Positions 57,651-58,569 of a stretch of 64,000 nucleotides of DNA are shown piece after piece. The stretch is taken from assembly GCF_050920415.1 (NCBI RefSeq), contig NZ_CP169309.1; one strand, given 5' to 3'. The stretch is from Escherichia coli. GTDB lineage: Bacteria > Pseudomonadota > Gammaproteobacteria > Enterobacterales > Enterobacteriaceae. A program made the position numbers and the translations under genes. The notes under the pieces are model-generated. The model had not been told where the DNA came from. It was given only the letters and a program-made list of their open reading frames with translations, and did not search any database. Positions within the stretch are counted from its first letter, which is position 1. Each line of letters begins with the position of its first letter.

Positions 57651-58500
57651 GAATCTTGACCTTTTTTGCTGTTATCGCCACTCCCTGCCGTGGAAGTCAG
57701 CTTAGAACAATGTACTCCCCCAGGACGGCGTTTTGAAGGTCTGCAGAATAAGATTTTGCCAGAGGGGAAGGCTTGATTGTGCTGTTAATAACTTAATAAT
57801 GGCAAAATAATTAGGTGTATATGCTTAATAATTAATGTTATGTAGTTAATTGTTCTGATTCTTAATTGTGGGTGTGGTTTTTTTATCTGTAAGATAATTG
57901 TTTGAAAATGCCTCGTTTAAGAATTCACTAATGAATCGTGATGATGATATTTCCGCATTACGGAGAGTTTAACAGCGTGATGATTTCCGAGGTGTCGTAA
58001 TGGGGGCAAGGTGTGAAACTATTGTTAAGCGGGATTAATGAATGAGGATGATGCTAATTAATTATTATTTAATATTCAAAAAGGTTTTGTTGTGCTTATT
58101 AATAATAGAAGATTACTTTGCCTAACATAACATAACTTTGCATCAGATAATTCGCAATGACCCTTATAAATAAAAGGTTTTTGGGGTAAAATGCTCGCAT
58201 AAATGACGGATCCCTGCTCTTGATGCCGCCTCACCATTGCTGTTTGTACGTGTTCGCGTATGACCAGCGATGCTGCACGAGAGTGGAACAAGGACTCACA
58301 TTTACATTTATACAAACACGCGCATGTCATAAATACAAAAGAGTGAGTAACTTAATAGATATGCGATTCCTGAAGATATATTCTGTGATCTACTTCAGGC
58401 ATTATAACGGAACAATGTGAGTCGCTTTTTTAGTGCAACTCATATGCATTTTTACTTTCGTCCGGGTTCCGGATGAAACTGCCAGGGAGGCACATTACAA

Positions 58501-58563
58501 ATGGAATTGCTTGTTTGTGTGTGCACAGCATTAACCAGCTCAGTACGAGCCGCCAGTAAGTGA
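58501..58563 (+). other. Candidate 20-codon upstream ORF immediately 5-prime of lrhA
   Basis: AGGGAGG SD at 58484..58490, ATG at 58501, product MELLVCVCTALTSSVRAASK, TGA at 58561..58563, which is 7 nt before the lrhA ATG; lrhA itself has no good SD. Confidence 0.3.
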
Positions 58564-58569
58564 TAATAT

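Follow-up and report, generated by a model that had tools for sequence, protein, structure and literature searches.

In the 64,000-nt stretch of Escherichia coli DNA analysed here (the window), alaA and lrhA are transcribed divergently and are separated by an intergenic gap of 919 bp, positions 57651..58569 (Table 1). The gap was found to be the largest among approximately 50 intergenic gaps over 50 kb, as counted in the 100% identical annotated strain MFDS1022581. Its G+C content is 0.38 compared to 0.51 for the whole window, and the lowest values, 0.31-0.35, are reached across 57700-58200. The initial annotation had described an unusually long, AT-rich spacer, and these figures bear it out. 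MG1655 has an equal 919-bp gap between the two genes, with no annotated features. With the gap as a query, identity was 100% to MFDS1022581 and ~97% to K-12 derivatives, and 5425 of 5426 complete E. coli genomes carried it at 95-100% identity. The second-largest gap in the 50 kb, between lrhA and nuoA (59509-60137, 628 bp, G+C 0.36-0.41), is presumably a complex control region of the nuo operon.

Table 1. Genes and sequence elements in and around the alaA-lrhA gap (window positions; the alaA-side regulatory elements and both hairpins are predictions)
Feature	Position	Strand	Remarks
alaA coding sequence	56433..57650	-	
alaA 5' untranslated leader, putative (~52 nt)	57651..57703	-	62-83% identity, 78 species
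alaA leader hairpin ACUUCC-ACGGCA-GGGAGU, predicted	57680..57697	-	covarying stem, 6-nt loop
alaA sigma-70 promoter, putative	57709..57737	-	-35 TTCAAA 57737-57732; -10 TACATT 57714-57709
Central AT-rich spacer	57760..58010		sequence poorly conserved, length conserved
Repeat copy 1 (TAATGAATCGTGATGATGATATTT)	57929..57952	+	sits where the gap is least conserved
Distal lrhA upstream element	58011..58077		-188 to -122; 52-68% identity, flanks 23-35%
Repeat copy 2 (TAATGAATGAGGATGATGCTAATT)	58036..58059	+	only flanks ATTAATGA and TAATTAAT conserved
lrhA core promoter	58144..58198	+	conserved block, weak -35, -10; 57-74% identity across the family
lrhA 5' untranslated leader	58199..58569	+	published, 371 nt; primer match
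Conserved block AAAUGGAAUUGCUU	58499..58512	+	core GGAAUUGC kept in at least 90% of species
CA-rich block GCACAGCAUU	58523..58532	+	-47..-38; CACAGC nearly invariant, 79 sequences
Small hairpin GCUC-AGUAC-GAGC, predicted	58538..58550	+	just upstream of the ribosome-binding region
UhpU pairing site (GAGCCGCCAGU)	58547..58557	+	lrhA-M1 gBlock; C58554 is the mutated base
Shine-Dalgarno-like AAGUGA and start codon	58558..58563; 58570..58572	+	(U)AAGUGA (nearly) invariant, 79 sequences
lrhA coding sequence	58570..59508	+	

The earlier statement that the gap contains no convincing open reading frame was also confirmed. The two longest frames, of 84 aa on the minus strand and 66 aa on the plus strand (TTG start), had no match in Pfam, and both are interrupted by stop codons in the closest relatives, NZ_JAATUR010000019.1 and E. 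albertii. With the frames broken in relatives and no Pfam match, a protein-coding gene or a conserved small ORF in the gap was rejected. The repeated motifs fared less well: both sequences quoted in the initial annotation are present, but as evidence they are neither significant nor conserved. The two copies of the TAATGAATnnnGATGATG repeat share 19 of 24 bases, which is marginally above chance (an equally good 24-mer repeat occurred in 6 of 200 dinucleotide shuffles), and at up to two mismatches the repeat is absent from all 78 other species, E. albertii included. Copy 1 lies in a region of 18-22% identity and 40% gaps in the 78-species alignment. Copy 2 is variable in the middle and conserved at its flanks, a pattern that points to two ATTAAT half-sites ~21 bp apart and not to a repeat unit. 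Matched by shuffles and without conservation beyond E. coli, a functional repeat was rejected.

A search with LrhA yielded 80 species-representative Enterobacteriaceae loci. Of these, 78 have alaA in divergent orientation upstream of lrhA, and all 78 gaps were extracted and aligned with MAFFT, identities being counted relative to the window. The gaps measured 764-1140 bp overall and mostly 905-1013 bp. Four conserved islands were found: 57651-57750 next to alaA (62-83% identity), 58011-58070 in the distal lrhA upstream element (52-68%), 58131-58190 in the lrhA core promoter (57-74%) and 58491-58569 at the end of the lrhA leader (63-71%). All four coincide with the functional parts proposed below, and the poorly conserved stretches are 57760-58010 and 58191-58490. 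Large parts of the spacer are thus conserved in the family, contrary to the poor conservation that would have spoken against the initial annotation. Within Escherichia, where third codon positions of the flanking genes are 0.59-0.72 identical, identity was 0.78-1.00 for 58051-58200 and 58301-58569 and about at the third-codon level in the central spacer and over the leader's first 100 nt. The central spacer has a median length of 249 bp across species (range 129-262) and the 5' part of the lrhA leader one of 282 nt. Segment lengths are thus kept where the sequence is not, which indicates that the long lrhA leader is ancestral to the family.

The G+C content of the central spacer is 0.34 in the window, with a median of 0.38 across species. 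Its identity to E. albertii is 0.56-0.76, and third codon positions of the flanking genes there are 0.59-0.67 identical. We infer that this segment serves as spacing or architectural DNA between two promoters, and, with its length kept and its sequence drifting, the promoter-to-promoter distance may itself be under selection.

On the alaA strand, the near-invariant blocks CTTCAAA and GAGTACATT enclose a 17-nt stretch that varies freely among the 78 species. Two such blocks 17 variable nucleotides apart are the signature of a sigma-70 promoter and predict a start near 57702; judged by promoter geometry, the alaA transcript would begin near 57701-57703. Conservation thus outlines a putative alaA promoter, start site and leader. 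The predicted leader opens with a hairpin in which 88% of alignment cells were paired, versus 34-62% for slid controls. One of its stem pairs is AU in 50, GC in 14 and GU in 11 sequences, and another is UG in 39 and UA in 34. Since the UG/UA alternation would be a C-A mismatch on the opposite strand, an RNA on the alaA sense strand is favoured. The loop ACGGCA is almost invariant in the 78 species, and a single-sequence fold reproduced the stem. Rfam had no match for this hairpin, and no description of it was found in the literature searched. Its conservation suggests a specific protein or RNA partner that would control alanine aminotransferase.

The lrhA transcription start has been reported 371 nt upstream of the AUG (PMC10578931; PMC4152368). 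In the fusion primer SM079 used in the published work, the lrhA-derived segment ATAAATGACGGATCCCTGCT is identical to window positions 58199-58218, which places the start at 58199. The resulting leader covers 40% of the gap, so that the long 5' untranslated region proposed in the initial annotation is correct and already published. A sole promoter close to the gene had been named as the contrary outcome; the published start is far from it, and sequencing showed no start site close to lrhA (PMC10578931; PMC4152368). An older annotation gave lrhA a short leader (PMC10578931; PMC4152368), which makes a second, proximal lrhA promoter conceivable. Of the multiple promoters that had been proposed, the two divergent ones of alaA and lrhA do share the spacer, but no evidence was found for several promoters of lrhA itself.

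Directly upstream of the published start, the core promoter comprises the conserved block CAGATAATTCGCAATGA (58144-58160), a weak -35 element TTATAA (58164-58169), a 17-nt spacer and the -10 element TAAAAT (58187-58192), which reads TAAGAT in other genera and ends 7 nt ahead of the start in the 79 sequences. CTTATAAAT and TTTnGGnTAAGAT are near-invariant in this promoter. The weak -35 element suggests that transcription of lrhA depends on activators. It also explains why a simple promoter scan, in which sites were no more numerous than in shuffles, missed the actual lrhA promoter. The promoter hexamers predicted by Shimada et al. (CTGCCA-16-TATGAT) could not be placed on the window sequence and were left unused. 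Further upstream, the distal element has the layout GTGAAA..ATTGTTAAG..ATTAATGA..TAATTAATTATTATTTAATATT, in which two ATTAAT half-sites spaced by ~21 bp precede an invariant AT tract.

Several regulators have been reported to act on this DNA, namely OmpR (binding, by ChIP), Lrp (binding and activation, by ChIP plus RNA-seq) and LrhA itself (autoregulation). [quoted passage not shown] Expression of LrhA in E. coli and of PigU in Serratia rises when transposons insert in the spacer (PMC10810281; PMC11331407), and in ST131 such insertions give a hyper-motile phenotype, the same as that of lrhA disruption.

The lrhA leader folded better than 100 of 100 shuffles (z = -2.37). Its sequence is poorly conserved over the first 290 nt, and across the 78 species the last 80 nt reach 63-71% identity versus 16-47% for the remaining leader; within Escherichia these 80 nt are 0.98-1.00 identical versus 0.59-0.72 at third codon positions. 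An AUG lies within the first of the conserved blocks in this part, AAAUGGAAUUGCUU; since this triplet varies to AAG, ACG and AGG, it does not act as a start codon. By position, the block overlaps the ArcZ site reported at -84..-58 in Dickeya pecT. The small hairpin that follows was also found in single-sequence folds of 41 species, with 76% of alignment cells paired versus at most 45% when slid and with covariation almost absent. RNAalifold, applied to the last 150 nt of the leader, gave no consensus structure except a trivial stem in the coding start, and a manually built two-tier hairpin at the leader end was well paired, with covariation nearly nil. In most other genera, an outer stem CNGG/CCUG surrounds the small hairpin; it is deleted in Escherichia (58538-58557).

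A pair of GGA motifs ~15 nt apart is also present in this part of the leader, one at 58486-58488 (less conserved) and one at 58503-58505, within the near-invariant GGAAUUGC (58503-58510). The arrangement resembles CsrA dimer sites. CsrA and RovM, the Yersinia LrhA homologue, have been studied together in published papers, and the literature yielded nothing usable on a direct CsrA-lrhA interaction (CLIP-seq) or on Term-seq 3' ends in the leader. If true, a CsrA-type site on lrhA would link Csr directly to LrhA. That the alaA leader hairpin and the GGAAUUGC/GGA site (of CsrA type or for an sRNA yet to be named) are real regulatory elements is a tentative proposal that we regard as possible but doubtful.

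The conserved end of the leader is where published small RNAs (sRNAs) act. RIL-seq chimeras put UhpU, ArcZ, RprA and McaS on the lrhA leader; a translational lrhA-lacZ fusion is repressed by UhpU, ArcZ and RprA, and McaS has no effect on expression (PMC10578931; PMC4152368). Pairing with UhpU was proven by compensatory mutation, repression being lost and then restored (PMC10578931; PMC4152368). The mutant lrhA-M1 gBlock reads GCCGCGAGT where the window has GCCGCCAGT, and the matching UhpU-M1 change is ACUGGUG to ACUCGUG. The wild-type UhpU target GCCGCCAGU is intact in the window, C58554 included, 16 nt before the AUG. The pairing has been reported as an Escherichia innovation, and the loss of the outer stem in Escherichia, which exposes the UhpU-pairing bases, fits this restriction.

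For the other sRNAs the pairing positions are less firmly placed. Affinity purification with RprA enriched lrhA 744-fold, and RprA lowers lrhA mRNA. In the orthologues hexA and pecT, ArcZ acts as a repressor at leader sites 42-84 nt before the AUG (PMC10810281; PMC11331407), and the position of GCACAGCAUU matches the ArcZ site at -50..-42 of Photorhabdus hexA. As read from the sRNA sequences, GCACAGCAUU / GCACAGCA is complementary to UGCUGUGU, a core common to RprA and McaS, which offers a lead, and only a lead, to RprA/McaS pairing at GCACAGCA. Windowed duplex energies for the seed regions of ArcZ, RprA, McaS and UhpU were within the range for shuffled leaders, and scans for contiguous complements of the sRNAs gave matches of 8-10 nt only. 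With energy scans no better than shuffles, the RprA/McaS and ArcZ positions are weak, and UhpU alone is anchored by mutants. Unrestricted RNAduplex runs of full sRNAs against the leader produced meaningless whole-molecule hybrids and were discarded. Hfq co-precipitates leader fragments of 150 and 350 nt, and in an hfq mutant the 1.5-kb and 1.25-kb lrhA transcripts are increased (PMC10578931; PMC4152368).

We conclude with high confidence that the divergent alaA and lrhA genes share this gap as their control region and that it includes the 371-nt lrhA leader as a hub for Hfq and sRNAs. According to this model, ~90 bp beside alaA would hold a sigma-70 promoter and a ~52-nt leader that opens with the conserved hairpin. 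The ~190 bp at 58011-58198 would combine the weak lrhA promoter with conserved upstream sites, to which the published LrhA, Lrp and OmpR inputs would be directed. Transcription from 58199 would then give the 371-nt leader, whose last 80 nt would present conserved, mostly unstructured blocks beside the ribosome-binding site. As described in the published work, sRNA pairing in the leader would block translation, destabilise the mRNA and lower LrhA, and lowered LrhA would derepress flhDC and motility. The remaining ~250 bp, AT-rich and evolving about neutrally at a kept length, would be spacing or architectural DNA between the promoters. Of the explanations offered in the initial annotation for the length of the spacer, the long leader was right and the other alternatives were not.

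The likeliest of the alternatives is that the spacer chiefly serves as a binding platform from which nucleoid proteins (H-NS, Fis, IHF) would silence or bend the region, its length being needed for a repressive nucleoprotein filament or loop. The G+C content of 0.31-0.35 over 57700-58200 agrees with such a role, as does the central 250 bp, which keeps its length and AT-richness across genera with its sequence drifting at a neutral rate; such persistence without sequence conservation leaves room for the central part to act architecturally or through nucleoid proteins. The rise in LrhA/PigU expression upon transposon insertion and the grouping with csgD-csgB and nanC-fimB also point this way, but the effect of the insertions could simply come from read-out promoters or from loss of the repressive leader. 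Nucleoid-protein silencing, as originally proposed, found no support: the one genomic-SELEX table consulted flags HNS at several neighbouring spacers and not at lrhA-alaA. Nor is the gene silent, since lrhA is expressed, with 174-962 LrhA molecules per cell as quoted in the literature. The H-NS-silenced class is marked by AT-rich composition, which the locus has, and by recent acquisition or strain variability, which it lacks (5425 of 5426 genomes; 78 of 80 species); the locus is ancestral, syntenic in 78 species and not horizontally acquired. Taken as the main function of the spacer, such a platform appears unlikely to us.

An RNA-based alternative is an independent Hfq-binding sRNA gene, "ig-lrhA-alaA", that would have a promoter and a terminator of its own and act in trans. 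In its favour are an interval upstream of lrhA enriched in Hfq co-immunoprecipitation and discrete 150- and 350-nt Northern bands, but the same upstream probe detects the ~1.5-kb lrhA mRNA, and in the authors' own view the bands are fragments of the leader. The sole terminator-like site (57599-57618) is inside alaA, with none in the gap, and conservation is poor over the leader's first 290 nt. Rfam, searched over 57000-59200 at a permissive E-value, returned chance-level matches only and none at the gathering score; the only sRNA match was a partial STnc170 of 20 bits (threshold 80), which was rejected, as STnc170 in Salmonella adjoins SL1458, another locus. The earlier suggestion of a non-coding RNA thus survives in the form of the Hfq-bound ~150- and ~350-nt leader fragments and not as an independent gene, which would have neither a terminator nor an Rfam family, and which we hold to be improbable. 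Control of lrhA by a translated upstream small ORF would involve either 58473-58559 or the AUG at 58501. The window contains both, and both overlap the leader's conserved final 100 nt; the former encodes 28 aa and stops 10 nt short of the AUG. An AUG-initiated ORF of some kind that ends 5-25 nt before the lrhA AUG occurs in 33 of 79 species. Only Escherichia, however, has the 28-aa frame intact; Citrobacter and Salmonella have lost or re-framed it. There is no Pfam match, and in many genera the AUG at 58501 reads AAG, ACG or AGG with the adjoining GGAAUUGC preserved. Conservation therefore looks nucleotide-level and not codon-level, and translation of such a frame as the controlling step is very improbable. 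We give still less weight to the leader being a metabolite- or temperature-sensing RNA (riboswitch or thermosensor): its length and a fold better than that of shuffled controls are in favour, but the leader shows no Rfam family even at a permissive E-value, no RNAalifold consensus in its conserved 3' part and no sequence conservation over its 5' 290 nt, and the signal sensed by LrhA is stated in the literature to be unknown.

The shared control region with its 371-nt leader is already known. The same locus has been described as the lrhA 5' UTR of E. coli K-12 (Melamed et al. 2023, eLife, PMC10578931; Bilusic et al. 2014, RNA Biol, PMC4152368), and the window shares its start site, length and UhpU site. 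The strain analysed here is not K-12, and 5 of 363 comparable leader positions differ from the published gBlock (T58244/G, C58336/G, T58367/C, C58545/T and C58554G), the last being the engineered M1 mutation and not a strain difference. Orthologous regions elsewhere in the Enterobacterales behave similarly: the Serratia alaA-pigU spacer is a long spacer between the orthologous gene pair, in which insertions de-repress the regulator, and in the hexA/pecT/rovM leaders ArcZ pairs 40-85 nt upstream of the AUG (PMC10810281; PMC11331407). UhpU pairing, in contrast, is an Escherichia feature, other genera having the outer stem over the equivalent bases.

Long leaders that serve as sRNA hubs include those of rpoS (567 nt), flhDC (~200 nt) and csgD (~150 nt). 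Like that of lrhA, they are long and Hfq-dependent, several sRNAs converge near their ribosome-binding region, and a global regulator is encoded downstream. ArcZ and RprA are common to lrhA and rpoS, and ArcZ and McaS to lrhA and flhDC/csgD. All sRNAs tested repress lrhA, whereas the same sRNAs activate rpoS. In comparison with rpoS, flhDC and csgD, inhibitory self-pairing of the ribosome-binding site is not a demonstrated feature of lrhA, and most of its leader (the 5' 290 nt) is unconserved in sequence.

LrhA stands at the top of a hierarchy that regulates motility, fimbriae, RpoS and, as recently reported, CRISPR-Cas in enterobacteria, and signals for carbon (UhpU), oxygen (ArcZ) and the envelope (RprA) meet in its long leader. 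These roles are already in the literature, so the locus opens no new question. What the present analysis adds is a family-wide constraint map of the spacer, a predicted alaA promoter and leader hairpin, and a structural rationale for the Escherichia-restricted UhpU pairing. The additions should be useful for annotation and experiment design and are unlikely to surprise a specialist.

Two of the genomes encountered deviate from the typical E. coli locus. In E. coli SCPM-O-B-12142 (NZ_CP144928.1, 4001-6400), an IS1 element cuts the gap after ~161 bp (window ~57811); beyond it lie elaD fragments and an IS5-like element, and lrhA and its usual downstream genes are absent from the gap position. In SCPM-O-B-8794 (NZ_JAATUR010000019.1), a GTDB species representative labelled E. 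coli, LrhA is only 95% identical to that of the window, with a third-codon identity of ~0.70 and a gap identity of 83.5%, and this genome looks like a separate Escherichia lineage, unlike typical E. coli.
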